64,000 nucleotides of DNA from a virus (taxonomy: Duplodnaviria; Heunggongvirae; Uroviricota; Caudoviricetes). Where the stretch lies: positions 29,489 through 93,488 of the IMG/VR virus record IMGVR_UViG_3300028914_000001; one strand, given 5' to 3'. The notes below the pieces were generated by a model. That model saw nothing but the letters and a program-made list of their open reading frames with translations, did not search any database and was not told the origin of the DNA. Of the stretch, positions 4,175-61,214 are shown piece after piece. A program made the translations under genes and the position numbers. Within the stretch, counting starts at the first letter, position 1. The number at the start of each line of letters is the position of its first letter.

Positions 4175-4203
4175 TTGACAGGCGGGGGGATATTTGTTAT
4201 ATT
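4175..4203 (+). promoter_or_regulatory. sigma70-type promoter
   Basis: TTGACA-N17-TATATT, then TTAATTA and an AGGAAGG RBS. Confidence 0.6.
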
Positions 4204-11500: not shown

Positions 11501-11517
11501 GGGGGGAAATCCTATTG

Positions 11518-11976: not shown

Positions 11977-11980
11977 GGGA

Positions 11981-12325: not shown

Positions 12326-12350
12326 TGGTTGAATCCTTTCTTGATTGGTT

Positions 12351-12390
12351 ACAAAAAACAATATAGCTAATTAAAGCTATATTGTCAAGG
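12351..12390. repeat. 38-bp duplicated promoter element containing the palindrome ATATAGCTAATTAAAGCTATAT (copy 1)
   Basis: Near-identical to 18431-18470. Confidence 0.8.
12360..12388 (-). promoter_or_regulatory. sigma70-type promoter with a palindromic, operator-like spacer
   Basis: TTGACA-N17-TATATT on the minus strand. Confidence 0.6.
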
Positions 12391-12413
12391 ATTATTTTGA
12401 TTTTTTTGATATT

Positions 12414-13130
12414 TTATGTCTCGAAGAACATGTCGAGGTGTTCCTTGATGTAGTTGAACCGTTGCATCGTGTAGTCCTTTTCAGGGGGTATGCCGAACCT
12501 CTTGAGCATATCGAGATGGTCCTGAATTTCCGCCTTGCTCTCATCGGGCCTGTACAGCATGTTGAAGGCACCGTTGCCATGGTAGAGCATCCAGTTGATG
12601 TTCTCGATTGCCTCGGTATTCTTCCACCTTACGCTGAAGTTGGCACAGTGACCCTGCACGGATGCGACGATGCCTACAAGGTTGCTCGTACTGAACTTGC
12701 AGTAGTAAGGCTTGTCTCCGCTTTCGAAAAGGAATCCGTTTTCGCCCCATCCGTCGTTGAACTGGCCGTCGATTTCGTCTTCCAGCTTGTAGAGGACTTC
12801 CTTGGTCTTCTCGGTGTCGCTGAGGATGCGGGAGTCGATGTAGACACCCATACAGAGGACGATGCCGTGGTCCTTGTCGAAGGATATGAAGTGGCCTCCC
12901 GCCTTGGTTCCTTCGGGGAACTGGTCGTCGCACAGGGGGTATGTCTTGCCCATGAATGAGGACTGGAAGGCTGAGAGCAGGTCTGGGAGCAGCTGCTTCT
13001 TTTCCTGTTCGCTGAGTTCGGTTTCATCGCCGTTCTCGTCGTTCCCGGTGAGTTCGATGCGGTAGAAGAGCTGGATGTTGTTGCTGTAATCGCAGTAGAA
13101 TGGTTTTCCTGTATGTTCGTTCTTAGACAT
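12414..13130 (-). CDS. hypothetical protein, DGWGENGF-motif family (paralog of 5072-5692)
   Basis: Conserved DGWGENGF block; ATG at track residue 22 (MSKNEH...). Confidence 0.6.
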   Translation of the reverse strand: MSKNEHTGKPFYCDYSNNIQLFYRIELTGNDENGDETELSEQEKKQLLPDLLSAFQSSFMGKTYPLCDDQFPEGTKAGGHFISFDKDHGIVLCMGVYIDSRILSDTEKTKEVLYKLEDEIDGQFNDGWGENGFLFESGDKPYYCKFSTSNLVGIVASVQGHCANFSVRWKNTEAIENINWMLYHGNGAFNMLYRPDESKAEIQDHLDMLKRFGIPPEKDYTMQRFNYIKEHLDMFFET

Positions 13131-13686
13131 TGTCTTTACCCTTGTTAGCCTTTGGAAGATAAATTCCCGCAACTTTCCTGTTGTATGGCTCAACCCCGTT
13201 GCGCCTACGGTAGCTTTGCTTCATCTTGTCGAGCCACGCTTCTGCTTCCTGTCTGCTCATGGACTTGAGGTCACCTCTCTTGATAAGGTCGGCAACTACC
13301 TGGGGACAACCAGCGACCTGTGTGAAGGTAAACTGTGTTGCAATTTCACGGGCGCCTCGGGTACCTTTGTCCTTGTCGTACCAAATCATCAGGCATACGC
13401 CGTTCATGTAGAGATATTCGTGAGTACGGTTTTCACACGAGGGGTCGAACCCACGGTAGAACAGGGTGTAACAAATCTGGTACGAATTCTCTTTCGTGAG
13501 AAGCATGAACTCGTTCTTGTGGGCAAGGTTAACTAGCGTCTTGCATGCGGCAAGCCTTGCCTTGAGAGCGGCGATTTCCTTTCGGGCGCCGTCAATATTA
13601 TATGATAAATTCCCGATGGTCTTTTCCATCTCGCCAGGGATGCGCTTCTGGCCACGCTTTACATATTTGAAATCGTATTCACTCAT
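13123..13686 (-). CDS. hypothetical protein (187 aa)
   Basis: GGAAGATTAACC RBS followed by ATG. Confidence 0.55.
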   Translation of the reverse strand: MSEYDFKYVKRGQKRIPGEMEKTIGNLSYNIDGARKEIAALKARLAACKTLVNLAHKNEFMLLTKENSYQICYTLFYRGFDPSCENRTHEYLYMNGVCLMIWYDKDKGTRGAREIATQFTFTQVAGCPQVVADLIKRGDLKSMSRQEAEAWLDKMKQSYRRRNGVEPYNRKVAGIYLPKANKGKDNV

Positions 13687-18430: not shown

Positions 18431-18470
18431 TACAAAAACAATATAGCTAATTAAAGCTATATTGTCAAGA
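18431..18470. repeat. 38-bp duplicated promoter element with the palindrome ATATAGCTAATTAAAGCTATAT (copy 2)
   Basis: Near-identical to 12351-12390. Confidence 0.8.
18440..18468 (-). promoter_or_regulatory. sigma70-type promoter with a palindromic spacer
   Basis: TTGACA-N17-TATATT. Confidence 0.6.
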
Positions 18471-19250: not shown

Positions 19251-20126
19251 TTACTCCTTTGAGGCAGCCTTCTTATTGAGCTTTTGCGTTATTCCTTCCC
19301 AGAGGAATACGTGAATAGGTACTAAGCTGATGTATGTCGAGAGAAAGCCAAGCACAGCGCAATCAAATTTCTTACCAAGATTAAAGAATATGATGAACCA
19401 CATGACCAGGAACACTTCCAACGACAGCTTTCCGACATCTTTCCAAAGTCTACGCCAATTTACTTTAGACTTGTTCTCCGATTCGACAGCCTTGGCATCG
19501 GCTTCGTCAAGAACTTCTTCAAGCGGCTTGCCTACCATGTCTTCCGTGATTTTTACACTCAGGAAGCGGTTAGTCTTCGGGTGGGTGTAGTTGTAAGTGC
19601 GGCCTACATAGTCCTCGGTAATTATCTGGCGGTCCCTAGCTTCGGTATCTGTCGCTTCCGACTCGATTGCGGAGATAGTTTTCATATAGACTACTTCGTC
19701 ATTCGTTGAGCCGCATTCTTCAAACCCTCGCTTTTCAAAGAACAGTTGAGTTAATTTGTTCTGGTTCGACTTATGCAAGGTAAAGTAGACATACGGGAGA
19801 TGTTCAGCCGTTGCCACCTCGATTGCCTTATTCAGCAGCACAGAGCCAAGCCCTTCCCCTTCCTTGATTGAACGGAGCGAGCATATCTTCAAATGATTCT
19901 CTCTTGGAATAATTGGACATATCTCGCTGTTCACATCATACCAGGATTCCCGTTTGAGAATCATCAATGCGACGATGGTTTCCCCATCCTTGACGACATA
20001 AGCATCCCGATGGGAGACTTGTAACAACCACTGGTCGAACTTCGGATAGAGTTTACGGAAGTGGTCGAATATGCCATCTCTTGCATCAAGGTCTCCGACA
20101 CGGGTTTTATCAAGTAAATAAACCAT
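19251..20126 (-). CDS. GNAT-family acetyltransferase with C-terminal transmembrane helices
   Basis: KEGEGLGSVLLNKAIEVA and FFEKRGFEE GNAT motifs; GAGGT RBS before the ATG at 20126. Confidence 0.5.
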   Translation of the reverse strand: MVYLLDKTRVGDLDARDGIFDHFRKLYPKFDQWLLQVSHRDAYVVKDGETIVALMILKRESWYDVNSEICPIIPRENHLKICSLRSIKEGEGLGSVLLNKAIEVATAEHLPYVYFTLHKSNQNKLTQLFFEKRGFEECGSTNDEVVYMKTISAIESEATDTEARDRQIITEDYVGRTYNYTHPKTNRFLSVKITEDMVGKPLEEVLDEADAKAVESENKSKVNWRRLWKDVGKLSLEVFLVMWFIIFFNLGKKFDCAVLGFLSTYISLVPIHVFLWEGITQKLNKKAASKE

Positions 20127-20134
20127 GTTTAACC

Positions 20135-20770
20135 TCACTGTTTGTCTTTAGGAAGTTCGATATTTGCAAAGTCATCGATTGACGCTTTCATGTTATCGTA
20201 GCGTTCGACCCATGCCGTCTTGTTGTTCTCCACGGCATCAGTTATGTCGGACAGCTCGCATTCCTCGAACTGTGCCATCACCTGTTCGAATTCATGCTGA
20301 TGATTCCATCTGGATACTTGTTTAAGAGGTAAGATATTAAATTCGCTATCCCTATTGTCGAACCTAGTAATGTCCTTAGCCTCGTGTTCTTCGATAATTG
20401 TTGGGCCCTCTATATGCAGAGTATCATCTAATTTTACACTGAGTATACGAATGTAGTAATGGTGTCTGCGGTTGTATAGGTACTTCCCACGGAGCCACTT
20501 GGAAAATTCGTGACGGAATTTCTCGATAAGTACAGGTTCTTTCTTTTCCAGGGCCTCCCGCATGGCTTCGGCAGTTACATTCGCCACCGTCAATTTGTCA
20601 ATAAGGTTGGTTTCCTCCTCGGTAGGGTTCATCATCCTTTTCAGATTCTGGAGAATACTGTCCCTACGCTCGGAGTCTGCCGATGAATACTTACTGCATT
20701 CATCCCAGTTATCGAAAATTGCGTTAAAGGTGTCTATTACGGAGCGTGGTATTTCGAGTTTCTTTTTCAT
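20135..20770 (-). CDS. hypothetical protein (211 aa)
   Basis: AGAAAGGTG RBS. Confidence 0.55.
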   Translation of the reverse strand: MKKKLEIPRSVIDTFNAIFDNWDECSKYSSADSERRDSILQNLKRMMNPTEEETNLIDKLTVANVTAEAMREALEKKEPVLIEKFRHEFSKWLRGKYLYNRRHHYYIRILSVKLDDTLHIEGPTIIEEHEAKDITRFDNRDSEFNILPLKQVSRWNHQHEFEQVMAQFEECELSDITDAVENNKTAWVERYDNMKASIDDFANIELPKDKQ

Positions 20771-31401: not shown

Positions 31402-31515
31402 TTACTTGGAGTTCTTTTCCTTTCTCAGCTCATGGTTCTCTTTCAAGATGTCAATAAGCTTGCAGGTCAGGATTCCCATTAAAAATCCTACACAAACACC
31501 AATCAGTACAATCAT
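31402..31515 (-). CDS. tiny membrane protein (37 aa), coupled to the SPFH gene
   Basis: ATGA overlap with the SPFH stop; single TM helix. Confidence 0.4.
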   Translation of the reverse strand: MIVLIGVCVGFLMGILTCKLIDILKENHELRKEKNSK

Positions 31516-32459
31516 TCTTCCAACCTGCTCATGTTGATTCCCGAGAAGTTCGGCGTGATTGTGTTGGCTTCTGCGCCAGGGAACTTTCCGTTCCACCTTT
31601 CGAGACGGGCCATTGTTTCTTCATGCTTCCATGCGCTCTGTTGGATTGCATAGTTGGCTGCAATAGCCTTGTTCTTGGCAATCATAGCCTTAGCTTCGGC
31701 TTCGGCTTCCACGATGGTCGCCTGGGCGTTACGCTTAGCGATTTCGAGTTCGTTTTCGGCCTTGTTAAGAGCGTTACGGTAGGTGGCAGAGTCGGCCTGC
31801 AACTGGGCACGGGCGGTAACAACCTTCTTTTCGTTGATAGCCTTTTCGATTTCCACATCAGCCTTTGCAGTCTTTTCCTTCTGCGTCTTAATCATGGTCT
31901 CCTTAATCTGATTATCGAAGTCATCCGTCCAATCCCAGTTGGAAATGTTCACGTCCTGAATCGTAATCGGCATCTTGGCGCACTTGACTTCCATCATCCT
32001 CTTCAACTCGTCGGAAATCTTGTCGGTTTCCTTGGTCAAGTCGTAGATGGAGTACTTGCCGATGACAACCTTCAATGTGGCCTTCATGTTGGACTTGAAG
32101 AAGCTTTCCAATGAAGACTTTGTGTAGTTGCGGACGAAGTTTTCGGCTTCGTCTTCGTTGAACGCATAGATGATTGACATGGAAACGCCCACCGTCTGCA
32201 TGTCCTTAGTGATTGCACCGTCATCGCCCACGGCATAGGTGAAGTCATCCTTCTGCGGGGAGAGTTCGATTGTGGTTACACTCTGGACGACCGGAATCTT
32301 GAAGGTAACGCCGTTTCCACGGGGAATAGTGCCAGAAATCTTACCCAAGGTCTTGACGACGGCAACTTCGTTCGGTTCCACGTTCGTGAAAGAGAAGAGG
32401 GCGCCAACACCAAGTACGGCGATAACGGCGACGATGATGAATACTTTGAGCTTACTCAT
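31512..32459 (-). CDS. SPFH/band-7 (prohibitin/HflK/C-like) membrane protein
   Basis: N-terminal TM, PHB-like core and a long Ala/Glu/Lys coiled coil; AAAGGAAAACACA RBS. Confidence 0.75.
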   Translation of the reverse strand: MSKLKVFIIVAVIAVLGVGALFSFTNVEPNEVAVVKTLGKISGTIPRGNGVTFKIPVVQSVTTIELSPQKDDFTYAVGDDGAITKDMQTVGVSMSIIYAFNEDEAENFVRNYTKSSLESFFKSNMKATLKVVIGKYSIYDLTKETDKISDELKRMMEVKCAKMPITIQDVNISNWDWTDDFDNQIKETMIKTQKEKTAKADVEIEKAINEKKVVTARAQLQADSATYRNALNKAENELEIAKRNAQATIVEAEAEAKAMIAKNKAIAANYAIQQSAWKHEETMARLERWNGKFPGAEANTITPNFSGINMSRLEE

Positions 32460-32752: not shown

Positions 32753-32781
32753 AATATAGCACATTAAAAGTCGGCTGTCAA
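32753..32781 (-). promoter_or_regulatory. sigma70-type promoter
   Basis: TTGACA-N17-TATATT. Confidence 0.55.
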
Positions 32782-32784
32782 GGG

Positions 32785-33102
32785 TTATCCCTCCTTTTCT
32801 TTAAAATCTTCTGAAGAAAATTCAGTCGACTTCGTTGGAGGATTGTCTTTCCGATTCCTTCTCTCAACAAGAAGGACATTCTCTCGGACAATGTCCACGG
32901 CATCTTCCTTAGTGTAGTAGATAGTAGTTCCACCATAGATTTCACGCTTCTTGTATTTATGTACACAGTCATAAAAGCTATAATCGACAGGAAACCACCA
33001 GAACAGGCCTTTCTCCTTGATATAGTACATCAGACGGTCGTACTCGGGACAATAAAATTCAACAACCTTGTACTTCTTAGGTTTCTTTTTAAACCATTCC
33101 AT
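32785..33102 (-). CDS. hypothetical protein (105 aa)
   Basis: AAGGGGTATGAC RBS. Confidence 0.55.
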   Translation of the reverse strand: MEWFKKKPKKYKVVEFYCPEYDRLMYYIKEKGLFWWFPVDYSFYDCVHKYKKREIYGGTTIYYTKEDAVDIVRENVLLVERRNRKDNPPTKSTEFSSEDFKEKEG

Positions 33103-33122
33103 GTCATACCCCTTGCACTTTG

Positions 33123-33491
33123 TTATCCCTTATCAGCCTCTGGTTTGAAACTGTATATAAGGGCGATATTGCCGATACGTTTCTTGAACTCGTCAAGCCC
33201 AACCCCGAGCTGCAATCTCGTGCGGTACGTGTTGAAACGGATGCTGCCGTCTTGCTCGGCAAACACGTCATCTGCCGGGATTGAAACCCATTTGCCGAAC
33301 GCCAGGTAAATCTGGCGGTGCATCATGTCGATAAATACGTCCCGACGGAAAAGGCTTTCGTGCCTCATCCTCTTGGCGACATCGACCATCGCACCGACAA
33401 TATTGTCGAACTTGCAGTTGGAGGTGTCCATCTTGGCACCAGCCCTCAGGTCTTTAAGTATTTCTTCATCAACCGCTTCTGAACTGCTCAT
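33123..33491 (-). CDS. hypothetical protein (122 aa)
   Basis: CGGAGTAAAT RBS. Confidence 0.55.
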   Translation of the reverse strand: MSSSEAVDEEILKDLRAGAKMDTSNCKFDNIVGAMVDVAKRMRHESLFRRDVFIDMMHRQIYLAFGKWVSIPADDVFAEQDGSIRFNTYRTRLQLGVGLDEFKKRIGNIALIYSFKPEADKG

Positions 33492-33493
33492 AT

Positions 33494-34687
33494 TTACTCC
33501 GATGCCTTGAAGTTATATACAGGCTTGATTGTTTCGACAATATCGCAACTGTCCTTGATGTTCTCGATGATTTCCTTTGCTGGCTTGTAAGCCATCGGGG
33601 ATTCATCCAAAGTGGATTTATTTACACATGTACTGTAAATGCCACGCATGGACTTCTGGTACGCTTCGAGCGAGATGCTTTCCTTCGCATGAGAGCGTGA
33701 CATCTTTCTTCCTGCTCCATGCGGTGCAGAGAAGTTCCAATCAGAGTTTCCCTTGCCCGTGCAAATAAGAGCCCCGTCCCTCATGTTCATAGGAATAATC
33801 AGGCGTTCGCCTTCCTGTGCGGATACAGCTCCCTTACGGAGAATCATGTGCTTCATGTCGATGTAATTATGCAAGGTGCAGAACTTGTCCACGACATGCA
33901 GACGGAGCGCCCTGACAATCTCTTCAAGCATCGCTTCACGGTTACGTGTTGCAAAGTCCTGTGCCAACGCCATGTCATGCAGATATCCGTCGAACGACTT
34001 GCCAGTGAGGTAAGACAGTTCCTTCGGGGGAGGGAAATGAGGGATGCTTGCCAACGCTGCGGGAAGCTCGTCTTCACGACCCTCACTCTTATACTTGGCT
34101 ATTATGGCACCACGCTGCTGAGTCAGGTCGTTGCATTCGTCGATTGCAACTCCCTGCCAGTAATCACAGGTTGCCAACCCAAGATGTCGGGAACCTGAGT
34201 GGATTACGATGTACAGGTTACCATGAGAATCCTTGTCGCATTCGCAGAAGTGATTGCCTCCGCCCAAACTTCCAAGCGACAACAACTCGGTATATTCCAT
34301 CTTCCCTTCCTTGTAGACAATCATATCCTCGATAGGAAAGTCCTTTGCCATCGAGTGCTTGCTTTCACGATGGGACTTCCCAGACGGAATCCTTTCACGG
34401 ATAACCTTGTCCAATTTATCAAAATCAACCGAACGGTCTTTCAACTTGGCAACAAGCATACCACACCCAATGTCCACCCCGACGAGATTAGGCACAATCT
34501 TGTCCTTAATCGTCATGGTAGTGCCAACGGTGCAGCCCTTCCCAGCATGCACATCGGGCATGATTCTAACCTGCATGTCCTTAGCCCAGCACTGACACAT
34601 CATGTTCAACAACTGTGTATATGCATCTGGGTCGATATTGTCGCTGAATACCTTGGCGGTATTAAACCTACCCTGTATATCAATCAT
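33494..34687 (-). CDS. rtcB: RtcB-family RNA 3'-phosphate/5'-OH ligase
   Basis: MPDVHAGKGCTVG, GGGNHFCE, HSGSRHLG and SAPHGAGR signature blocks; ATG at track residue 7. Confidence 0.9.
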   Translation of the reverse strand: MIDIQGRFNTAKVFSDNIDPDAYTQLLNMMCQCWAKDMQVRIMPDVHAGKGCTVGTTMTIKDKIVPNLVGVDIGCGMLVAKLKDRSVDFDKLDKVIRERIPSGKSHRESKHSMAKDFPIEDMIVYKEGKMEYTELLSLGSLGGGNHFCECDKDSHGNLYIVIHSGSRHLGLATCDYWQGVAIDECNDLTQQRGAIIAKYKSEGREDELPAALASIPHFPPPKELSYLTGKSFDGYLHDMALAQDFATRNREAMLEEIVRALRLHVVDKFCTLHNYIDMKHMILRKGAVSAQEGERLIIPMNMRDGALICTGKGNSDWNFSAPHGAGRKMSRSHAKESISLEAYQKSMRGIYSTCVNKSTLDESPMAYKPAKEIIENIKDSCDIVETIKPVYNFKASE

Positions 34688-34694
34688 AATAAAC

Positions 34695-35051
34695 CTATCT
34701 ACCAATCAATTCTTTTTTATAACCATAGGCAATATCAAATGCCTTACCCATCTCAATCGCCGCTCGGATAGCCTTCTTGATGTCATTATCCTTCACAACG
34801 CAGTCGTACAGATTTCCGAACGCAACTGGACTCGAATACTCCCGGTCACGAGTACGTATTTCACTCCACATGAGTGTATTGCCGTCATTAGTATCCTTGT
34901 CCTTGTAGAAAGACATGTTCAAAACGGTGTTATTGAACGTGATATTCAACATGCTACCGTCAGCAACTACTCCACAGTCAGGCAGATAGTGCATAGCGAA
35001 ATCAAGGTCATCCTTCTTGATTCGCAAATATTGAAGATTCCGTCGTGCCAT
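34695..35051 (-). CDS. hypothetical protein (118 aa) immediately upstream of rtcB
   Basis: GAAAAGGAATACT RBS; the track ORF N-terminus runs over the tRNA-like sequence. Confidence 0.5.
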   Translation of the reverse strand: MARRNLQYLRIKKDDLDFAMHYLPDCGVVADGSMLNITFNNTVLNMSFYKDKDTNDGNTLMWSEIRTRDREYSSPVAFGNLYDCVVKDNDIKKAIRAAIEMGKAFDIAYGYKKELIGR

Positions 35052-35071
35052 AGTATTCCTTTTCAAAAAGT

Positions 35072-35145
35072 TAATCGGGCAGGTGGGATTCGAACCCACA
35101 CTGAAGGGGGTTTAAACCCCATTCCTCTACCAGTTGGGTTACTAC
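35072..35145 (-). tRNA. tRNA-like gene (74 nt, anticodon UAA, Leu-type reading) with a weak D-arm
   Basis: 7-bp acceptor stem with one G-U; canonical GTGGG-TTCGAAT-CCCAC T-arm; anticodon loop TTTAAAC; D-stem pairs poorly. Confidence 0.45.
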
Positions 35146-35160
35146 CCGAACCAATTCAAT

Positions 35161-36309
35161 TTAGTCAGAAAGCAGACGCTTGATTCTGTCACGAGCCCGC
35201 ATGAAGTTTTCATGGTAGGTTCCGTTCAGATAAACAACATCTTCTGTGCAGTAGTGCTTACCGAGAATGCTCATCAAGACCTGATACTGCTTCTTCCTAT
35301 CTTCGAAGCTGTTCGTGAGGCAATCCCTGCTTCCGTCCTGCACCCAGCTATCTTTTTTCGGAGGCATAACGAAGATGAGGTCGTATTTCAGGAACTTCGC
35401 ATTGGCTTCGATAAGCTTATAGTCGTCTTCGGTGATGGCATACCTGTCATCCATCGAGTAATACTTAGCGTACATGAGCGTTGTCATTGCGTCACTGTCA
35501 CAGATGTTGACCTTATGCCAACTTGCCGAGTTGACTCTGTACTGCTCGTTAAGAAAACGAAGGTAGTCATTAAAGGTCAGCTTGGTATCATCAGGCTGCG
35601 GTTCCTTTCCGTTTTGAGCGGCGATGTAAGTGTGACCGTATTCCTCGGTGTACCCAACATCGAAGTATCTGGCAAGGTCTTTCGTGAGCGTGGACTTGCC
35701 TTCCGATGCCGTACCGATAATCAGGACACGCTTGGCGAACTGAGCCTTGAACTCATGCCCAATGATTTCGTCCCAATACTTCATCGGTTCCTTGCGTATC
35801 TTTGTTGCAGAAATCTGATTGAGCTCTCTCGGCAACAGATACACATTGGGGCCTTTACTGACCAACGACATGATTGCCTGTCTGTACGACGGTTCGCCAG
35901 TAAAGACAGTCGTTTTCTGAAGCAATTTCGTACACTTTCGCTTGCTGACATCAGCATTGCCGTACACGATTTCAGCGAGCTTATCGCTGAGAGCTTCCAA
36001 CCATTCAGACCATTTGTCCATGTAACCTGCAATGCCGATATCGTTATCCTTCATCATGACGACGTGAACAAGCGGGTCGCCTTCAAACATCTTCTTGATG
36101 ATTTCATAGCGACGTTCAATCGGAAGACCGATTCTCGTACCACGGTCGCCATCAAGCCCGCAAACGGCAATGATTGCACCCTTAGAGCAGAGCTTCTTCG
36201 CTGCCATTACGAGGTCAAGATGACCTGTATGCATCGGGCTGAAAGACCCGAGGACAACCCCGTATTCACGAGGGCCACCGCTGATTTGGTTAATCACGTC
36301 GTCAAGCAT
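35161..36309 (-). CDS. nadR: NadR-like bifunctional NMN adenylyltransferase/ribosylnicotinamide kinase (no HTH)
   Basis: N-terminal GSFSPMHTGHLDLV (HxGH nucleotidyltransferase motif); C-terminal Walker A GTASEGKST; GGAGG RBS. Confidence 0.75.
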   Translation of the reverse strand: MLDDVINQISGGPREYGVVLGSFSPMHTGHLDLVMAAKKLCSKGAIIAVCGLDGDRGTRIGLPIERRYEIIKKMFEGDPLVHVVMMKDNDIGIAGYMDKWSEWLEALSDKLAEIVYGNADVSKRKCTKLLQKTTVFTGEPSYRQAIMSLVSKGPNVYLLPRELNQISATKIRKEPMKYWDEIIGHEFKAQFAKRVLIIGTASEGKSTLTKDLARYFDVGYTEEYGHTYIAAQNGKEPQPDDTKLTFNDYLRFLNEQYRVNSASWHKVNICDSDAMTTLMYAKYYSMDDRYAITEDDYKLIEANAKFLKYDLIFVMPPKKDSWVQDGSRDCLTNSFEDRKKQYQVLMSILGKHYCTEDVVYLNGTYHENFMRARDRIKRLLSD

Positions 36310-36990
36310 TTAAGCCTCCACAGTGTCTGTTTCAAGCTTCTTCTCGGTATGAGACCATTCGACCCAACCGTAGATGGTGTTGATAAACCAGCAAACATAC
36401 ATCGCCACCATTGCCCATTCGCCAATGAGTGCGAAAGTCACGATGGAAATGCCATCAAGCACAAACCAGAAGAACCACTGTTCACGGTAGCAAGTGATAA
36501 TGAGAATCTGAGCAATGACCGTGAAGCTTATGCTCAACGCATCCATGTACGGAACTGCACCGTCAAGAACAAACTTGTCGAACGTACCGAAGCCAACGGT
36601 AAGAACGATTGTCGCAATAATCGAAATAACCCATGCCTTAGGAGAGAGTCGCTTCGGAATAACGTGCGTTCTGTCCTTTTCGAGCTGCTTGTACCATGCG
36701 TACAAACCATACACCATCGTCACGTTGTAGAAGATATATTCGCCAAATTCAAGCCACAGGCGGCTTTCCCAACAGATGTACATATACATGAAGTTGAAAA
36801 CGAAACTCGGTGCGTAAGCCCAGATGTTCTTCTGTGCAAACATCACGGTTGAAATCGTTCCCAGGAGTGCCGTCAGCATGGCAAACCACATTGCGGTATG
36901 GCCATCAGGCATCATGATGGTGAAGATGATGGTGAAGATGATGAACGCTGTCATGTACAGCGCACGGAATTTATTTTTGATAAAAGACAT
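36310..36990 (-). CDS. pnuC: PnuC nicotinamide riboside transporter
   Basis: Seven predicted TM helices, aromatic-rich, PnuC-like size; abuts nadR; AAAGAAGGCAAT RBS. Confidence 0.7.
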   Translation of the reverse strand: MSFIKNKFRALYMTAFIIFTIIFTIMMPDGHTAMWFAMLTALLGTISTVMFAQKNIWAYAPSFVFNFMYMYICWESRLWLEFGEYIFYNVTMVYGLYAWYKQLEKDRTHVIPKRLSPKAWVISIIATIVLTVGFGTFDKFVLDGAVPYMDALSISFTVIAQILIITCYREQWFFWFVLDGISIVTFALIGEWAMVAMYVCWFINTIYGWVEWSHTEKKLETDTVEA

Positions 36991-37028
36991 ATTGCCTTCT
37001 TTGTTGATGGTTTTTGTTGTTTGTGAAA

Positions 37029-37057
37029 AATATACTAACTTCATTCCCCTCTGTCAA
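37029..37057 (-). promoter_or_regulatory. sigma70-type promoter with the -35 in a CCCC/GGGG hairpin
   Basis: TTGACA-N17-TATATT. Confidence 0.55.
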
Positions 37058-37073
37058 GGGGGTTGCTCGATTT

Positions 37074-37802
37074 TTAACCACCTGCGGGCCAGTCAACGTA
37101 GCACTTACCCTTATTTTTCTTCACATAGGAAATAATCATGCGCTGCATCTGCTTGTACTCCTTGTCACTGCACTCGTCGGTGTTCTGAATAATGACAGCA
37201 TCATTGTCAAGGATAAAGGACGCAAGGTCGCAGAAGTCCAAGTAAGAATTGCAGCTGTCATCTACGCTCAGAATAGACAAGTCTGCATTGGGCTCGGTAA
37301 TCTTGTCAATCGTCCTGAGCATGTAGCTCATAATGATAGACTGGAAGGATTCATGCCCATAGCATCCGTTCGAAGCCCAATATTTCGGCCCAATGTATGC
37401 ACCGTTTTTCTTGGACTCTACTTTTGTATTCTTGATGGTAAGAGTGATATTCCAGTGCTTCTTGAAGCTCTTCTTCATGTAAGCAATGAACTTGCGATAT
37501 GCAGCAACAATTTCATCATTGCGCTTGATTTCCTTAGCGGTAATGTTCAGGTAGCCCTTCTTTTTCTCAGACCACTTGCCACAAGTCAACTTGTCGCACC
37601 AGTATTTCATGATGATTAGGAAGCAGTAGCTAGCCTTTTCTTCAGGCAGCTTCCTTTCGATAAGCGTTCTCTCGCTAAAATCCATCTCACCGTCAATACA
37701 GACCTTGACGGGTTCCTTGTTGAATACGCTACCCCTCGGGATGACGATTGCGTGCATCGAGGAAGAGTTCGTCTCGAATGTTGATTCTCGTATCGTTTTC
37801 AT
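37074..37802 (-). CDS. FETNSSS-motif family protein A (242 aa), unknown function
   Basis: N-terminus MKTIRESTFETNSSSMHA is shared with three paralogs; AGGAGAATGGAA RBS. Confidence 0.6.
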   Translation of the reverse strand: MKTIRESTFETNSSSMHAIVIPRGSVFNKEPVKVCIDGEMDFSERTLIERKLPEEKASYCFLIIMKYWCDKLTCGKWSEKKKGYLNITAKEIKRNDEIVAAYRKFIAYMKKSFKKHWNITLTIKNTKVESKKNGAYIGPKYWASNGCYGHESFQSIIMSYMLRTIDKITEPNADLSILSVDDSCNSYLDFCDLASFILDNDAVIIQNTDECSDKEYKQMQRMIISYVKKNKGKCYVDWPAGG

Positions 37803-37811
37803 TCCATTCTC

Positions 37812-38321
37812 CTATCTGATAATCGTGATATTACCGAAATCCTTAGCGGGATTGAGTAAAAGTATGTTGTGGTGAGGACGGGTATTGTGTTCCTCGTCCT
37901 TGACAAGGTCGTCTATGATGACATAGTCGTAACCGTCGTACCTGCTCAGGTCGTTGTTGGCAAGCTGTTCCGCCACCAGATGAATCTTACCGAGTCCGTA
38001 TGCGGCCATCATGCCTGGGTGGAGGACTTCCTCCCTGTCGGATTCCTTCAACCATTCCCGGCTGATTGCGTAATCAACCGAGTCATTCTTAGTAAAGACA
38101 CAGCCACGGGGGAACCCGTACAATCCAAACCTGTCGAAGATGCTATCGACGACATCATCACGGATATCATCCTTGGTCTTCCATCCCCATGTGAACAAAT
38201 GCACGAACAGGGGTTTGTAACGGTCGATGAACCCCTTAATCTTCTCGCAGTTTTCCTGCATGAAGTTGAGCGATGTCAGGTCATCTACGACTGTATTTTC
38301 AATATCTAATACCAGCTGCAT
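37812..38321 (-). CDS. hypothetical protein, possibly HAD-like (169 aa)
   Basis: N-terminal LVLDIENTVVDD resembles a DxDxT motif; ACAAGGAATAAAG RBS. Confidence 0.45.
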   Translation of the reverse strand: MQLVLDIENTVVDDLTSLNFMQENCEKIKGFIDRYKPLFVHLFTWGWKTKDDIRDDVVDSIFDRFGLYGFPRGCVFTKNDSVDYAISREWLKESDREEVLHPGMMAAYGLGKIHLVAEQLANNDLSRYDGYDYVIIDDLVKDEEHNTRPHHNILLLNPAKDFGNITIIR

Positions 38322-38323
38322 CT

Positions 38324-38896
38324 TTATTCCTTGTTGTAATCTCTAACTTTCTTTACATAACTGGAAATGTCGAGTTCCTCGGGGTGGAGCTTGCCTTGAC
38401 TGAAATACTCGAACTTCAGTAGCGTGGCGATTTCCCTTGGTGCGTCCTTAACGACCTCGTCGTACGCTTCGGCACTATCAATCAATTTATTCATGGCACA
38501 CTCACGGCAGTACGGGCTAACCCATCCAGTCCTCACCATGGGCACATCAAGCTTTCCACAGACGATGCAGACATTCCGTGATATCGCACAGTAGGCTTCG
38601 AGGATTTCGAAGAGTTTGTCGCTCATGGCTGACGGGTAGATACGGAGTTCGCCGAACTTCTCCTTGATGTCGCAGAAGTAGAACTCATCTCTGGCTTCCT
38701 TCTTCCAGGTGTTTACCTCGTTCTGGATATCCTCGAACATCAGGATGCCAAACGCCTTCGCCCATCCTTCAGGTAGATGGTCCATACAGGTATAGCTGTA
38801 ATCGTATCCGTCAATTACCTTTCCCGTGAACGCATTCTTCGGGAGAAGTATCGGGTACTTCTCGATGAGAGCCTTATTTTCTTCCACCGTTCGCAT
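38324..38896 (-). CDS. hypothetical protein (190 aa)
   Basis: AAAGGGAAAGAAAG RBS. Confidence 0.55.
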   Translation of the reverse strand: MRTVEENKALIEKYPILLPKNAFTGKVIDGYDYSYTCMDHLPEGWAKAFGILMFEDIQNEVNTWKKEARDEFYFCDIKEKFGELRIYPSAMSDKLFEILEAYCAISRNVCIVCGKLDVPMVRTGWVSPYCRECAMNKLIDSAEAYDEVVKDAPREIATLLKFEYFSQGKLHPEELDISSYVKKVRDYNKE

Positions 38897-39251
38897 CTTT
38901 CTTTCCCTTTATGTTGACTTCGATACACATCTTCACATAGTCCTCAATAGAACGTATCTCGTACTTCTTGCCGTTGGTTTCAACGAGGGTGGAACCACCG
39001 TGGGAAATAGTGTCCAGAGCCTCGTACATGAACCATTCGGCGCCTTCCTTGCTTTCGTAGAGGAATGCCATTAGCCAGTCGATAATGCGGTTATCAACAA
39101 GTTGAACCGGGCCAAGATACATCGAGCGGGAATCCCCTCCAAGAGCCTTGTCCATATTCGAGTTAAACTGTTCAAGTTCCTTTTCCATGCTGTCACGGAG
39201 TTCTACCAGCCGTTTAAGCAAGTCAATGAGCAATTCTTCTGTGTTTGCCAT
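38874..39251 (-). CDS. hypothetical protein (125 aa)
   Basis: AAAGAGGTTTAT RBS followed by ATG (MANTEELL...). Confidence 0.5.
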   Translation of the reverse strand: MANTEELLIDLLKRLVELRDSMEKELEQFNSNMDKALGGDSRSMYLGPVQLVDNRIIDWLMAFLYESKEGAEWFMYEALDTISHGGSTLVETNGKKYEIRSIEDYVKMCIEVNIKGKKDANGGRK

Positions 39252-39270: not shown

Positions 39271-39299
39271 AATATACATACTTCTTTTGAGATTGTCAA
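39271..39299 (-). promoter_or_regulatory. sigma70-type promoter (divergent from the clpX promoter)
   Basis: TTGACA-N17-TATATT. Confidence 0.55.
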
Positions 39300-39332: not shown

Positions 39333-39361
39333 TTGCCACCCTATAAAAAATATACTATATT
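39333..39361 (+). promoter_or_regulatory. sigma70-type promoter for clpX
   Basis: TTGCCA-N17-TATATT, then TAATTCAAAGC and an AAAGGAA RBS. Confidence 0.55.
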
Positions 39362-39384
39362 AATTCAAAGCAAAAGGAATTACC

Positions 39385-40644
39385 ATGCCAAGCAACAAAA
39401 GACCTACACAAAACGACACCCCGGTCTGCAGCTTCTGCGGACGCCCGATTGAAGAAAACACCCTTGCCGTACGTGGCATGTCCCCGATAGGAGCATTCAT
39501 CTGCTCTGATTGCGCCAAGCTCGCCAGCAACATTATGGATGCAAGAGCAGCACAGCAACAGCAGAATGGTCGCAAGAAAGAGATGCACCTCCCGTCTCCT
39601 CATAAAATTAAAGAACACCTTGACACGTTCGTCATCGGACAGGACAAGGCCAAGGAAGCCCTTTCCATTGCGGTGTACAACCATTACAAGAGACTGGAAT
39701 ACAACGAAATCCGCTCCGACGATGATGTGGAAATCGAGAAGTCCAATGTCCTCCTCGTAGGCCCGACGGGCTGTGGAAAGACGATGCTTGCAAGGGCTAT
39801 CGCAAAGATGCTCAATGTCCCGTTCGCAATCGCCGATGCGACCGTCCTGACCGAAGCTGGCTATGTGGGCGAAGATGTGGACAGCATCATTTCCCGCCTC
39901 CTCCAAGCGGCAAACATGGACGAGAAGGAAGCCGAGCACGGCATCATCTTCCTCGACGAAATCGACAAGATTGCAAGGAAGAGTGCCAACCCGTCCATTA
40001 CCAGGGACGTATCGGGCGAAGGAGTACAGCAGGGCCTGTTGAAGCTCCTCGAAGGAACTGAGGCCAAAATCAATCCGCAGGGTGGCAGAAAGCATCCCGA
40101 ACAGAAACTGATTACCATTGACACCAGGAACATCCTCTTCATCTGCGGGGGAGCTTTCGAGGGCCTTGACGAAATCATCTCCGAACGTACTGAAAAAGGC
40201 GGCATGGGATTCGGTGCAGCCATCCACACGAGGGAAAAGAAAAGCCTCAGCGAACTGTTCGATAAGTGCGAACCTGATGACCTCGTGAGGTTCGGACTCA
40301 TGCCGGAACTCGTCGGCAGACTTCCCGTCACCGTCGCTCTTGACGAACTCGACGAGGACGCCCTCCGCAGAATCCTGACCGAACCGAAGAATGCCATCAT
40401 CAAGCAGTACACCAAGCTGCTCGAACTCGACGGAATCAAACTTTCGTTCGACGAGGAAGCGCTCGGGGAAATCGCCCGCCTGACCATCGAACGCCATACT
40501 GGTGCCCGTGGTCTCCGTTCCATCGTCGAAGAGTTGCTCCACGACGCAATGTTCATGGGTCCCGACAGCAAGGACAAGGAACTCCGCATCACGCAGGATA
40601 TGGTCATGGAACACTTCCATATTCAGGAAAGAAAGGCTTCCTAG
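39385..40644 (+). CDS. clpX: ClpX ATP-dependent Clp protease ATP-binding subunit
   Basis: N-terminal C4 zinc finger (CSFCGR...CSDCAK), Walker A GPTGCGKT, Walker [10 protein letters not shown], full-length ClpX homology. Confidence 0.95.
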
Positions 40645-40668
40645 CCATCTTTCCAACTGAATTGAAAT

Positions 40669-40700
40669 AGCCAGCGAGAACATCGCTGGCTTTCTTGTTA
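40669..40700. terminator. bidirectional rho-independent terminator
   Basis: AGCCAGCGA-gaaca-TCGCTGGCT hairpin followed by TTCTTGTTATTTCTT. Confidence 0.7.
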
Positions 40701-43466: not shown

Positions 43467-44063
43467 TTAGAACTTTACCGTCGGGGCCACATCAGCGCCA
43501 GTAACAGCGGAGAACGGCACCTTCGGGGTCACTCCGGCGAATCCCGCCACGAAGACACCGGGGAATGTTCTGACCTTGTTGTTAAGGTTGTTGACTGCCA
43601 CATTGAACTGGCGTCTGGACTCGGCGATACGGTTTTCGCATCCTTCAAGCTGAACACGCAGGTCACGGAAAGCGGCGTTAGCCTTCAAGTTCGGATAGTT
43701 TTCTGTAACCATCATGAGACGCTGCAATGCTCCACCGAGGCTGTTCTGTGCTTCCTGGAACTTCTTCATTGCACGTTCGTCACTGAGCATGCTTTCATCC
43801 ATCTTAATCACGCCACCCATACGGCTACGAGCCTCGATGACTTCGGTGAGCGTACTCTTCTCGAAGTTGGCTTCGCCCTTCACCGTTTCGACGATGTTCG
43901 GAATAAGGTCGTAACGACGCTGGTACTGGTTTTCGACGTTAGCCCAGCTCATCTGCACACCGTTTTCAAGAGTGCGAAGGGAGTTGAACTGGCCGATGAA
44001 AGCGCATCCGCTGATAAAGGCGAGCACGACAATGACGATAAGTACGAGTTTACCCGTAGACAT
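43467..44063 (-). CDS. lemA: LemA-family membrane protein
   Basis: N-terminal TM, then NSLRTLENGVQMSWANVENQYQRRYDLIPN, YPNLKAN and LEGCENRIAESRR blocks typical of LemA. Confidence 0.8.
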   Translation of the reverse strand: MSTGKLVLIVIVVLAFISGCAFIGQFNSLRTLENGVQMSWANVENQYQRRYDLIPNIVETVKGEANFEKSTLTEVIEARSRMGGVIKMDESMLSDERAMKKFQEAQNSLGGALQRLMMVTENYPNLKANAAFRDLRVQLEGCENRIAESRRQFNVAVNNLNNKVRTFPGVFVAGFAGVTPKVPFSAVTGADVAPTVKF

Positions 44064-44101
44064 TTTATACCTCTTTGGTTTAGATTGTTGGTTTTGTTGA
44101 A

Positions 44102-44130
44102 AATATAGCATTTAACTTGGTGCTTGTCAA
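44102..44130 (-). promoter_or_regulatory. sigma70-type promoter
   Basis: TTGACA-N17-TATATT. Confidence 0.55.
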
Positions 44131-44133
44131 GGG

Positions 44134-44874
44134 CTACCATCCGCCATGACTTCCGCCACCGCCGAAACTGCCTCCGCCGAATCCGCTGCTGCCTCCGCCA
44201 CCCTTGCCTCCGCCAAGACATGACAGTATAACGAGAACGGTACTCAACACGGGAATATCAGTGAGCGCCTCGATGATACCAAGTAGGATTAGGACGACGA
44301 TTACTATGGCTACCACGATGGCTACCGTGGTTCCGCTCACCTTCTTTTCATCGGCAGGGGCGAGCTGAGCCGTATCAAGGGTTGCCGTGAGCGTAATCTT
44401 CTTCTCTTCTTGGACCTTCGTGGCAATCATGCTTGCAAGCTTGATGATGCCCTGACCACCCTCTCCACTCTGCAATGCGGGGATAAGGGAGGTCTGCTGC
44501 ATATGTTCCACGAGGACATCAGGCAAATACCCCTCGGAACCGTAACCCACATGTACGCCTCGGTAGTGCGGGTCCATCACGACATAGATGAATACACCCT
44601 CGTTCGAATCCTTGCTGCAGATTGCCCACTTCTGGGCTACACGCAAACTGAATTGAACCGGGTCTTCACCGTCAATCGTCTTGAATGTCGCCACGGCAAG
44701 GCCGAAACGAGCGTTCTTGGCAAGGTCGGACGCAATCGAATTTAATTGGTAGACCTGGTTTGCCGACATGATTCCCGCCCCGTCGTAAACGAACGAGTTG
44801 GTTGGAATCGGTGGGACCTCGATGGCCGAAACCAACGAGACAAGTAGCACTAATATGGCTAGGATTTTCTTCAT
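44134..44874 (-). CDS. TPM-domain (YgcG-like) protein with signal peptide, TM segment and Gly-rich tail
   Basis: Signal peptide, TPM-like core, TM helix, C-terminal GGGSFGGGGSHGGW; canonical LemA partner. Confidence 0.7.
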   Translation of the reverse strand: MKKILAILVLLVSLVSAIEVPPIPTNSFVYDGAGIMSANQVYQLNSIASDLAKNARFGLAVATFKTIDGEDPVQFSLRVAQKWAICSKDSNEGVFIYVVMDPHYRGVHVGYGSEGYLPDVLVEHMQQTSLIPALQSGEGGQGIIKLASMIATKVQEEKKITLTATLDTAQLAPADEKKVSGTTVAIVVAIVIVVLILLGIIEALTDIPVLSTVLVILSCLGGGKGGGGSSGFGGGSFGGGGSHGGW

Positions 44875-46042: not shown

Positions 46043-46993
46043 TTACCATCCTTGGGTTGTAACCTGAAGCAGGTCATGAATGTTTTCCTTACCCGTGAAC
46101 GAGTAACGCTTGTCCAGAGCTGCGGTGCTCATGCGGGCTACCTGCATGTTCGGAACGTCGATGTACATCGTGGCACAGGTGATGTTCCCGTCAGCATCCT
46201 TCACATCCGTGTCGGAACCCTGGAACAGCGTATTGAAATCCTTGTCAGAGATATTGAGAGCCGTCTTCGGGTCCAACTGTTCTATGCCGAGGCAGTCGAA
46301 CGACATCACCTTAAAGGGAAGAATCGAGCGCATCATCATGAATTTCAGCCAGTTGATATTAGCCTTGATTTCATCACTGTGCTTTTCAAGCATGGCATGA
46401 CCACGACGCAAATCCTTGTAACCAAGGATAAGCACCTTCCTGTCGCTCAATGCAGGGAGGTCCTTCGCAGTCAAGATGCCCGCAATGGTATGGATTACAA
46501 CATTGTCGCCGAGCGTGTCGATGAAGTCGAAGTCTTCCTTGTTGCTGGAATCCGTAAGCGAGATGCCGATACCGTGAACGAGACCGTCGCCCACAATCTT
46601 GCAGATGATGTCCTTGTACGGTTTCAGGTGACGCTGGTTGATTGTGATGTTTGCGATTACACCCTGTTCCTTCAAGCGTTCGAGGAACCAGACGAGGTCA
46701 GGATGGGCCAAGGCGTTGCCACCACCGATAGCGCACTCGGTTCCTGAATGAAGGGTAGCAATCATCGGTTCCAATGCCCTGAGGTCGCCATGCTTGCCAT
46801 TTACCGTAGAGTTTTCATGGCAGTAAACGCATCCACCGTCGCACTGGTCGGTAATCTTGATGTCAAAGTTCTCGGGAAAATCATATGTGAAATGGTCGGC
46901 CATCGGGTCGAGCGTTTCCTTGATTTTGGTGCCATCCGAGTAGATGGTCACCATATGGTTGCCGTTTGTATATGTGTTAAGTATCGTTCGCAT
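46043..46993 (-). CDS. radical SAM enzyme (QueE-like?)
   Basis: CDGGCVYC (CxxxCxxC) cluster at residues 50-57 and GGGNALAHPDL glycine motif. Confidence 0.65.
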   Translation of the reverse strand: MRTILNTYTNGNHMVTIYSDGTKIKETLDPMADHFTYDFPENFDIKITDQCDGGCVYCHENSTVNGKHGDLRALEPMIATLHSGTECAIGGGNALAHPDLVWFLERLKEQGVIANITINQRHLKPYKDIICKIVGDGLVHGIGISLTDSSNKEDFDFIDTLGDNVVIHTIAGILTAKDLPALSDRKVLILGYKDLRRGHAMLEKHSDEIKANINWLKFMMMRSILPFKVMSFDCLGIEQLDPKTALNISDKDFNTLFQGSDTDVKDADGNITCATMYIDVPNMQVARMSTAALDKRYSFTGKENIHDLLQVTTQGW

Positions 46994-46994
46994 C

Positions 46995-47972
46995 TTAGTC
47001 TCGCCAACGGTTTCTCTTCATTTCTTCAATGAATCCTTCGGGGTAGTACAATTCGTTAGACATTCCATTGTACGTTCCCGACATGTGAATGATTTCCGAC
47101 GTAGCCTTGTCGTAAGTCTGGCATGCAACGCAATGTCCGCAACGACCCTTGTATGTCGGGCTATAACAGAAGCTGCACAGTTCGATAGGGAAATGACGGT
47201 AGTTCAAGTTACGGATAATATCCGCCTTTGTCAGGAACTGAAGGGGATAGCTGAACATGATATTCTTCTGCCCAACCACCGTCAACAGATGCTCCTGTGC
47301 GGCAAGGATATTGTGCGACCAGTTCCAGAAGTCGTCACCCTTGTGATATCCGAAGTGGTAGCAGGTCTTATTCCTGCCACACAGAGATACCATCGAGGCC
47401 ATAAAGGGTTGTTGGAAAAGAGACGGTTCCGAACCGTTCCAGTTATCCATATTCCCTTCAAGCTTAATGAAATCTCGTTTAGGTTCATAGTCGTACTTCT
47501 TAGCGAGATATTCGAGAATCTTTTCCTGAGAAGCAACTTCAGACAAATAGTGATGGGATGTGCCAAACTGTTCACACCGGAAGCTGAGCAAGCGTGGCTT
47601 GATACCCTTTTCGAGCAAATCAACGAGAATAAGCGTACTGTCAAGACCACCACTGAATACTACCGCATTGTTGATAATATCTTCAAACTTCTTTGTAATA
47701 GGCTTTACTTCATGGAGCCTATCGAAGACCTTCTCTGCGGCAGATTTGAATTGGTGGGTTTCCTCAGGCGATTCGACATCGCACAAAACTTCTTCGGGAG
47801 CGGCGTCGCACAATTCCGCTTCATCTTTCTTTTCATCCTCAGCGTCCACCTTCAATTCAGCCTTATACGGCTTCTTTTTGGCCACGAGAGCTCGCTTCAA
47901 CAGGGTGCCGTATTTCGGTTTAGACTTTGTTTCTGGACGAATCTTTTCGTTTGATTGTTTCTTTTTAGTCAT
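46995..47972 (-). CDS. queC: QueC-like PP-loop ATPase (7-cyano-7-deazaguanine synthase family) with a Lys-rich N-terminal extension of about 100 aa
   Basis: VVFSGGLDST PP-loop; C-terminal C-x8-C-x2-C-x2-C zinc motif (CYSPTYKGRCGHCVAC) as in QueC. Confidence 0.65.
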   Translation of the reverse strand: MTKKKQSNEKIRPETKSKPKYGTLLKRALVAKKKPYKAELKVDAEDEKKDEAELCDAAPEEVLCDVESPEETHQFKSAAEKVFDRLHEVKPITKKFEDIINNAVVFSGGLDSTLILVDLLEKGIKPRLLSFRCEQFGTSHHYLSEVASQEKILEYLAKKYDYEPKRDFIKLEGNMDNWNGSEPSLFQQPFMASMVSLCGRNKTCYHFGYHKGDDFWNWSHNILAAQEHLLTVVGQKNIMFSYPLQFLTKADIIRNLNYRHFPIELCSFCYSPTYKGRCGHCVACQTYDKATSEIIHMSGTYNGMSNELYYPEGFIEEMKRNRWRD

Positions 47973-59301: not shown

Positions 59302-59966
59302 GCCCAGCTGGGCAGTTTATCCGTCAATGTCTTGTCGAAGACGGTACGCTTTGCGTCATATATCCTGAATCCATTGTATCTAAACCACGGTTCCATGAAG
59401 TATTCGCAAATATACCCATCAATTCGTGGGCTTTTAAACTTATGGATTTCATCAAAGTCTTTAAGAACCCCATTGAATATAAAATCAAAGAACATATTGG
59501 CAAGTCCCTTACGGCAAATAAACATGTTTCCAAGGTAAATATGGTCACCAATAAAGTTCGTTTTAAAATAGTTCGCCATATCTTTGCCGAAATTCACCTG
59601 GACGACGGCCAAGCCTAGTGCAAGTTCATTGCGCTTCCCGGTCATAGTCATGTGTTCCATGGCGTTCTGTTTCAATTCACTCCTGAACATGATGACATCA
59701 TTCTTTTTAAGGATGCCACGTATTTCGAAATCAGAAAGCAGGGTTCCGTTATCGTTGGTGAAGTACCTTCTATAATGTTCAAGGCCTACGATATCGTCAT
59801 TACAATGCTTCCATAGGTAATACATGCCCGTAAGCTCACTATACCAAGGGTTGAGCGAATCTATATTATCGCCATCATGGTCAACATCGACCAAGAACTT
59901 CTCCCTAATATCATCAAGAGGTCGAAACTTGGTTTTGCTGCTTCCTACAACATATATCTTAGTCAT
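59298..59966 (-). CDS. DUF4422-family protein (putative glycosyltransferase of polysaccharide loci)
   Basis: MTKIYVVGSSK...NPWYSELTGMYYLWKH matches the DUF4422 signature; start overlaps the GT2 stop. Confidence 0.6.
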   Translation of the reverse strand: MTKIYVVGSSKTKFRPLDDIREKFLVDVDHDGDNIDSLNPWYSELTGMYYLWKHCNDDIVGLEHYRRYFTNDNGTLLSDFEIRGILKKNDVIMFRSELKQNAMEHMTMTGKRNELALGLAVVQVNFGKDMANYFKTNFIGDHIYLGNMFICRKGLANMFFDFIFNGVLKDFDEIHKFKSPRIDGYICEYFMEPWFRYNGFRIYDAKRTVFDKTLTDKLPSWA

Positions 59967-61104: not shown

Positions 61105-61186
61105 GTTAATCTAATTAGTTTCAATCTATCAGTAAAATACATTTTTTAACTTTTTACATTTTTTGTACTTTTTTTCAAAACCCTCT

Positions 61187-61214
61187 TGACAATCATGTTT
61201 TAATTATGTATATT
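61187..61214 (+). promoter_or_regulatory. sigma70-type promoter
   Basis: TTGACA-N16-TATATT with TTTTAATTATG in the spacer. Confidence 0.6.

Follow-up and report, generated by a model that had tools for sequence, protein, structure and literature searches.

In a 64,000-nucleotide stretch of a Caudoviricetes genome (IMG/VR record IMGVR_UViG_3300028914_000001, positions 29,489 to 93,488), hereafter called the window, two adjacent minus-strand genes encode a PnuC-family transporter and a NadR-like enzyme, and together they probably constitute a cassette that rebuilds nicotinamide adenine dinucleotide (NAD+) against NAD+-depleting defence systems, in the manner of the recently named third NAD+ reconstitution pathway, NARP3. 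The pnuC gene lies directly behind a sigma-70-type promoter-like site and is followed by the nadR-like gene without any intervening nucleotide, as the TAA codon of pnuC (36312-36310) immediately adjoins the ATG codon of nadR (36309-36307) and a GGAGG sequence is located inside the 3' end of pnuC, 5 nucleotides before this ATG. A tRNA-Leu gene, a small open reading frame (ORF) named orf118 and a gene for an RtcB RNA ligase follow on the same strand (Table 1).

Table 1. Positions of the NadR-PnuC cassette, its domains and its immediate neighbours in the window
Feature	Coordinates	Strand	Description
nadR-like gene	35161-36309	minus	382 aa; predicted bifunctional nicotinamide mononucleotide (NMN) adenylyltransferase / ribosylnicotinamide kinase, without helix-turn-helix (HTH) domain
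NMN adenylyltransferase (NMNAT) domain	35785-36264	minus	aa ~16-175; GSFSPMHTGH at aa 21-30 (HTGH at nt 36220-36231); ISATKIR at aa 166-172
Ribosylnicotinamide kinase (RNK) domain	35230-35736	minus	aa ~192-360; Walker A GTASEGKST at aa 199-207 (nt 35689-35715); Walker B Asp271; lid DGSR at aa 325-328
pnuC	36310-36990	minus	226 aa; Pnu-family transporter, predicted nicotinamide riboside uniporter; longest ORF extends to 37044
Sigma-70-type promoter-like site	37029-37057	minus	TTGACA 37057-37052, 17-nt spacer, TATATT 37034-37029
tRNA-Leu, anticodon UAA	35074-35149	minus	ARAGORN; Rfam RF00005, 47.2 bits
orf118	34695-35051	minus	Same strand, downstream of nadR and tRNA-Leu
RtcB RNA ligase	33494-34705	minus	PF01139 7.6e-63; phrog_1075 4.5e-132

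The product of the nadR-like gene is confirmed, by sequence profiles and by its predicted structure, as a NadR-type enzyme with an NMNAT domain followed by an RNK domain and without an HTH domain. Pfam recognizes CTP_transf_like at residues 19-172 (6e-06) and AAA_28 at residues 194-352 (6e-21), NCBIfam returns TIGR01526 for the NadR adenylyltransferase domain (2e-53) together with a match to the full NadR model PRK08099, and in PHROGs the best family is phrog_3462, nicotinamide-nucleotide adenylyltransferase (8e-62). Sequence matches in the PDB are exclusively to NadR proteins, comprising those of Lactococcus lactis (6GYE, 1.8e-39), E. coli (8X7F) and Haemophilus influenzae (1LW7) and the phage protein Bas30_86 (9X6F/9X6H, 3.3e-22). 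This bears out the original prediction, made from the sequence alone, of a 382-residue protein with an N-terminal HxGH nucleotidyltransferase motif and a C-terminal P-loop GTASEGKST. In an alignment with 24 homologues showing 28-88% identity to the window protein, the NMNAT residues G21, P25, H27, G29, H30 and R172 and the RNK residues G199, T200, S202, G204, K205, D271, D325 and R328 are invariant. The GSFSPMHTGH segment aligns to its counterpart in 6GYE, 9X6F and 8X7F, the ISATKIR segment aligns with LSATQIR of 6GYE and ISATMIR of 9X6F, and the kinase motifs correspond to the segments that have been described in the L. lactis NadR as Walker A (187-195), Walker B (254-260) and lid (304-318) (PMC7221760). 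Thus, homology and the conservation of these motifs lead to the prediction of both nicotinamide riboside (NR) kinase and NMN adenylyltransferase activities.

An AlphaFold2 model of the protein (mean predicted local distance difference test score 89, predicted template modelling score 0.82) is consistent with this assignment, and in a Foldseek search against the PDB its top eight matches are all NadR structures (6GYF/6GYE/6GZO, 8X7F and 1LW7), aligned over about 385 columns covering both domains with TM-scores of 0.69-0.79, after which only single-domain kinases or adenylyltransferases appear, with E-values of about 1e-6. The enzyme hence shares the two-domain fold and the motifs of the bacterial NadR proteins, with the L. 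lactis protein as the best PDB match in sequence as well as in fold. It differs from enterobacterial NadR in lacking the N-terminal HTH regulator domain, as the match to PRK08099, a profile of 411 positions, begins only at position 64, and only 15 residues stand before the NMNAT motif. The L. lactis NadR and Bas30_86 are likewise without an HTH domain, and its absence excludes only the enterobacterial trifunctional regulator subtype.

The identity of the second protein as a PnuC-family transporter is equally confirmed at the level of sequence, with matches to PF04973 (4.5e-38; 131.4 bits, gathering score 27.3), to the NR transporter equivalog TIGR01528 (96.9 bits, curated cut-off 42.45) and to phrog_1880 (1e-36). 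The structure of Neisseria mucosa PnuC (4QTN) is matched at 3e-14 with 210 residues aligned, covering 4QTN residues 18-233. Among the characteristic features of the Pnu family are the ligand motif WxxW(x)3D/N in transmembrane helix (TM) 6 and Trp residues at the ends of TM3 and TM7 (PMC5749112). The former is present as WFFWFVLD at residues 172-179, and the Trp residues of the YGLYAWYKQ and YGWVEWSH segments are matched in 4QTN by Trp residues where the helices corresponding to TM3 and TM7 end. Hydropathy together with the 4QTN alignment suggests a topology with a 7-TM core and one additional N-terminal TM, which also has its counterpart in the N. mucosa protein. The transporter had been described as a 7-TM PnuC-like protein abutting nadR, and of this the PnuC identity and the abutting position hold, while the number of TM helices is more likely to be about eight. 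NR is the predicted substrate by analogy with characterized homologues.

The promoter-like site upstream of pnuC agrees with the consensus at 11 of 12 positions, and its assignment as a promoter is favoured by the recurrence of the same arrangement, TTGACA-N17-TATATT with at most one mismatch, at 27 places in the window, as compared to 0.24 expected from shuffled sequences. By this measure it is a member of a real and reused promoter class. The -35 box, the spacer length, the -10 box and the position of the site are kept in four relatives, namely L001 (a 409-kb gut metagenome contig, ERZ27229684 k119_126612), L006, L007 and L075, although the spacer letters vary. In many of the 27 copies the spacer contains a TTTAATT-like stretch, and two copies are identical across all 29 nucleotides, with examples on both strands at 4175-4203(+), 12360-12388(-), 18440-18468(-), 32753-32781(-), 39271-39299(-) and 61186-61214(+), so that the phage would seem to use this promoter class throughout its genome.

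The translation start of pnuC is placed, from sequence conservation, at the ATG at 36990, giving a protein of 226 residues. This ATG is conserved, the AAGAAGG-N4-ATG arrangement preceding it is invariant in the relatives and the gene call in L001 also has 226 residues. A longer form of 244 residues starting from the ATG at 37044 was rejected, as this codon falls within the promoter spacer and is missing from the relatives. With the shorter form the 5' untranslated region of pnuC would be only about 30 nucleotides, and an Rfam search for an NAD+ riboswitch (pnuC motif) or another structured RNA near the pair returned the tRNA only. On the opposite strand, a 572-residue ORF (35134-36852) was likewise rejected as a gene, both minus-strand ORFs having strong family matches. 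It represents a codon-phase shadow, because nadR contains no TTA, CTA or TCA codons.

The pair had also been proposed to stand under its own promoter at 37029-37057. The site and its conservation support this as far as the start of the unit is concerned, but the unit itself probably runs past the pair. The next minus-strand copy of the promoter motif is found only at 32781, and among the terminator-like sites listed by the scan none is on the minus strand between nadR and this position. Transcription is therefore likely to extend beyond nadR, and the same promoter probably serves tRNA-Leu, orf118 and RtcB as well. The tRNA-Leu(UAA) gene lies 11 nucleotides past the nadR stop codon and occupies the same position in L001, L006, L007 and L075.

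Among 88 loci of the NadR subfamily (69 from IMG/VR, 14 from genomes or metagenome-assembled genomes (MAGs), 4 from metagenome look-ups, and Bas30), a same-strand PnuC gene was found beside nadR, within the available flank, in 86. Of the two unpaired loci, one ends 127 bp past nadR and the other is the most distant match, with 27% identity. The identities of NadR and of PnuC to the window pair co-vary with r = 0.98, and the two genes stay joined amid otherwise unrelated neighbours, as seen from a comparison of locus L004 with L001. Such near-universal pairing argues that selection has acted on the two genes jointly, even between lineages that are evolutionarily far apart. The gene order is nadR followed by pnuC in 78 of the 86 paired loci, including Bas30 and the Lak-like megaphages, whereas the reverse order is restricted to 8 loci, all of which belong to the clade of the window (NadR identity of at least 68%).

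Among phage pairs of this arrangement, the restoration of NAD+ and of phage growth has been demonstrated only for NARP3, comprising Bas30_86 and Bas30_87 of the T5-like Escherichia phage TrudiRoth, for which the name was introduced (PMC13464706; Sci Adv, August 2026). Bas30_87 binds NR, and an NR-dependent rescue supports its role in import, while Bas30_86 turns NR into NMN, from which it makes NAD+; expression of the two restores NAD+ levels and plating against Sir2-HerA and DSR1, for which both genes and external NR are required (PMC13464706). The window pair resembles NARP3 in being a two-gene cassette of adjacent same-strand phage genes, in having an HTH-less NadR with NMNAT and RNK domains and common catalytic motifs, in the Pnu-family partner and in its location beside phage tRNA genes. 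The two nevertheless differ in the order of genes, which is pnuC and then nadR in the window, in the adenylyltransferase motif, which is the canonical HTGH in the window enzyme and TRGH in Bas30_86, and in the Pnu motif, where the window protein has Asp and not Asn. They also differ in the carrier, which in the case of NARP3 is a 114-kb T5-like coliphage and in that of the window a megaphage of at least about 400 kb from metagenomes.

By analogy with these homologues, a sequence of events can be proposed in which, after infection, the sigma-70-type promoter would drive pnuC and then nadR, the translation of which would be closely coupled given the abutting stop and start codons and the GGAGG sequence within the end of pnuC. 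External NR would diffuse into the cell through PnuC, the C-terminal kinase domain would phosphorylate it to NMN, which would thereby be trapped in the cell, and the N-terminal adenylyltransferase domain would combine NMN with ATP to yield NAD+. In this manner the NAD+ pool could be kept up while host NADase defences of the SIR2, TIR or DSR type destroy NAD+. Because the enzyme lacks the HTH repressor domain, the supply of NAD+ would be independent of host regulation. Both the anti-defence benefit and the timing of expression in the window phage are predictions drawn from homologues. The import of NR and its conversion to NMN and NAD+ as a counter to NAD+-depleting defence had been put forward in the original prediction, and this appears right in kind, as it agrees with the published experiments on Bas30_86/87. 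The idea itself is already in the literature, both as NARP3 and in the earlier work of Osterman et al. (2024; bioRxiv 10.1101/2024.02.11.579819), who noted that phage NadR is usually in an operon with PnuC and considered this a possible further NAD+ reconstitution pathway.

Several observations weigh against the assignment of the window pair to a NARP3-type counter-defence. At the level of sequence the distance to the characterized pair is large, with 28% identity of the enzyme to Bas30_86 and 26% of the transporter to Bas30_87. The NadR-like protein scores under the NCBIfam cut-offs of both TIGR01526 (181.8 against 341.15) and PRK08099 (119.7 against 201). As a control, Bas30_86 also fails TIGR01526 (270.7) and passes PRK08099 (253.2), and therefore the window protein, failing both, is a more divergent NadR member. 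In the clade of the window, the basic residue of the 'EYGR' stretch of the RNK domain is His in place of Arg, and the residues N45, Q94 and N180, reported as NR contacts in Bas30_87, are replaced by G, V and D, respectively, in the window PnuC. NADase defences yield adenosine diphosphate ribose (ADPR) and nicotinamide, not NR, and as NR is not among their products the pathway would be useful only with external NR. The Asp of the Pnu motif, as found in the window PnuC, is the variant of the thiamine transporter PnuT (PMC5749112). Furthermore, the role of the Bas30 proteins was demonstrated using plasmid expression and not in the native phage (PMC13464706).

The dependence on external NR also sets the window route apart from the other phage pathways with which it shares the rebuilding of NAD+ by phage-encoded enzymes. 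NARP1 (Adps and Namat) uses ADPR and nicotinamide, and NARP2 (Nampt and an NMNAT/Nudix protein NatV, as in KVP40) uses nicotinamide and phosphoribosyl pyrophosphate (PRPP), and both thus recycle NADase products, while the window route needs a transporter for its substrate. A Pfam scan of the 83 window ORFs, the window representing about 15% of the genome, matched 29 families, and among the 25 of these that were listed no NAMPT/NAPRTase, PRPP-synthetase-like or Nudix family is present. As compared to E. coli, in which pnuC and nadR are at separate loci (PMC13464706), the window genes are combined in one tight cassette with a phage promoter.

Closer in setting are the gut jumbo and Lak megaphages, which are large phages of the gut or rumen with clustered pnuC and nadR (PMC11662467), but the NadR of the window clade has at most 38% identity to that of any such pair among the loci collected here, and the gene order is opposite. 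In a survey of gut jumbo phages, 68 of the 174 'NAD-jumbo' phages carried pnuC, at least one of them in a cluster with nadR, and the co-occurrence of NAD+ synthesis with NAD+-using genes was read as self-sufficiency (PMC11662467). This survey offers ground for viewing the pair as an auxiliary metabolic module of general use, providing NAD+ for the replication of a large phage or for its own NAD+-using enzymes independently of host NADase defences, and the same view gains from NR not being a product of such defences, which makes the pathway one of supply and not of recycling. We consider this explanation unlikely. No further NAD+ genes and no NAD+-consuming enzymes, such as an NAD-dependent ligase, an ADP-ribosyltransferase or a sirtuin, are found among the 25 listed families of the window ORFs, and with tRNA and RtcB genes adjacent, the surroundings of the pair lean towards counter-defence. 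The metabolic supply and the counter-defence are in any case compatible, as the biochemistry is identical and only the selective reason differs.

Counter-defence roles exist for tRNA genes as well as for RtcB-type RNA ligases, and tRNA-Leu, orf118 and RtcB may represent a tRNA repair or replacement counter-defence beside the NAD+ cassette. A more far-reaching reading takes the reversed order, the Asp of the Pnu motif and the His in the 'EYGR' stretch of the kinase as marks of a cassette that was separately assembled or rearranged in the window clade and that forms one early operon with tRNA-Leu(UAA) and RtcB, possibly with an altered substrate such as nicotinic acid riboside. We regard it as speculative and rather improbable, but if true, a single transcription unit would answer two abortive-infection strategies, NAD+ depletion and tRNA cleavage. 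The RtcB of L001 (region 11161-13391) is a protein of 711 residues with an intein-like insertion of about 308 residues right after the GVDIGC motif, and orf118 is absent in L001; the window RtcB is without this insertion.

A change of substrate as such, with the Pnu protein transporting thiamine, riboflavin or nicotinic acid riboside and the kinase domain trapping that compound, is a very unlikely explanation, though for the transporter taken by itself another substrate is conceivable. The Pnu family does include PnuT for thiamine and PnuX for riboflavin (PMC5749112), and the PnuT-like Asp, the three NR-contact residues of Bas30_87 that are not kept and the sub-threshold NadR scores all lean in this direction. 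However, TIGR01528 is passed at more than twice its cut-off, the NMN adenylyltransferase site is complete and sensible only for a pyridine nucleotide, the best structural matches are NadR only, and the near-universal pairing of NadR with PnuC is what is expected for uptake of NR with its metabolic trapping.

That the region is instead a NAD salvage operon of a bacterial chromosome or plasmid is barely credible. In its favour, the closest genome-assembly match, the 101-kb contig L075 (JAFXNA010000009.1; NadR identity 87%), lies in a Bacteroidaceae MAG from sheep reticulum, and contigs assigned to MAGs of Clostridia, Treponema and Anaeroplasmataceae also have homologues. Against it, viral contigs of 174 and 419 kb in IMG/VR hold the same pair with NadR identities of 89-90%, the 83 window ORFs match only 29 Pfam families, which is read as phage-typical gene content, the PHROG matches in the window include a virion structural protein family, and the genes are small and dense, most of them share one strand, and a promoter motif recurs among them. 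MAG binning often takes phage contigs along, and we read L075 as such a phage contig binned into a MAG. The contig L001 is syntenic with the window, sharing genes for QueC, LemA, ClpX, PnuC, NadR and RtcB. The carrier of the cassette is a very large phage, of at least about 400 kb, living in a ruminant-associated or gut community.

Relatives in GenBank are found at the protein level only, as megablast of positions 33000-39000 against GenBank phages returned no match, and the best GenBank phage matches to the window NadR are those of Lak phages, with 34-35% identity. Frequent Shine-Dalgarno sequences and sigma-70-like promoters are not usual for Bacteroidota. In the window, Shine-Dalgarno-like sequences precede 62 of the 83 genes and the promoters are sigma-70-like, and because of this a Bacteroidaceae host is doubtful.

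Taken as a NARP3-type cassette, the window pair extends this pathway beyond the T5-like enterobacterial phages that were the focus of the original paper to a deeply divergent lineage of phages of at least about 400 kb from ruminants and the gut. The near-universal pairing also suggests that in anaerobic gut ecosystems phages are commonly under pressure from NAD+-depleting defences or from a limited supply of NAD+. Of most note are how widely the two genes are paired, their reversed order in the window clade and the operon that they may share with tRNA-Leu and RtcB. At such a distance from Bas30, the pair could also serve as a test case for which residues of the transporter and of the enzyme matter.

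Elsewhere in the window, a full-length ClpX homologue with both the zinc finger and the AAA+ domain (39385-40644(+)) interrupts a long block of minus-strand genes as the sole gene on the plus strand. A promoter-like site of its own is located at 39333-39361 and a two-way hairpin follows the gene at 40669-40691, and the gene is conserved in the 409-kb relative. Opposite clpX, a second long antisense ORF of 442 residues (39355-40683(-)) is also a codon-phase shadow. Both nadR and clpX have zero TTA, CTA and TCA codons, as compared to a window mean of 1.4% of codons, and show a stronger codon bias than their neighbours.

A QueC-like gene at 46995-47972(-) adjoins an ORF (region 46043-47972), whose counterpart in L001 has a weak radical S-adenosylmethionine match. 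Genes for LemA, TPM-phosphatase and Band-7 proteins are probably located nearby, as judged from synteny with L001, and the regions 43467-44874(-) and 31512-32459(-) were noted together with these genes. A family-2 glycosyltransferase is encoded at 59959-61104(-), and UDP-galactopyranose mutase, PTH2 and M29 peptidase families are also among the window matches. In L001, an IS605 OrfB/TnpB (Cas12f-like) gene is located at 19658-20761, about 8.5 kb downstream of the cassette.

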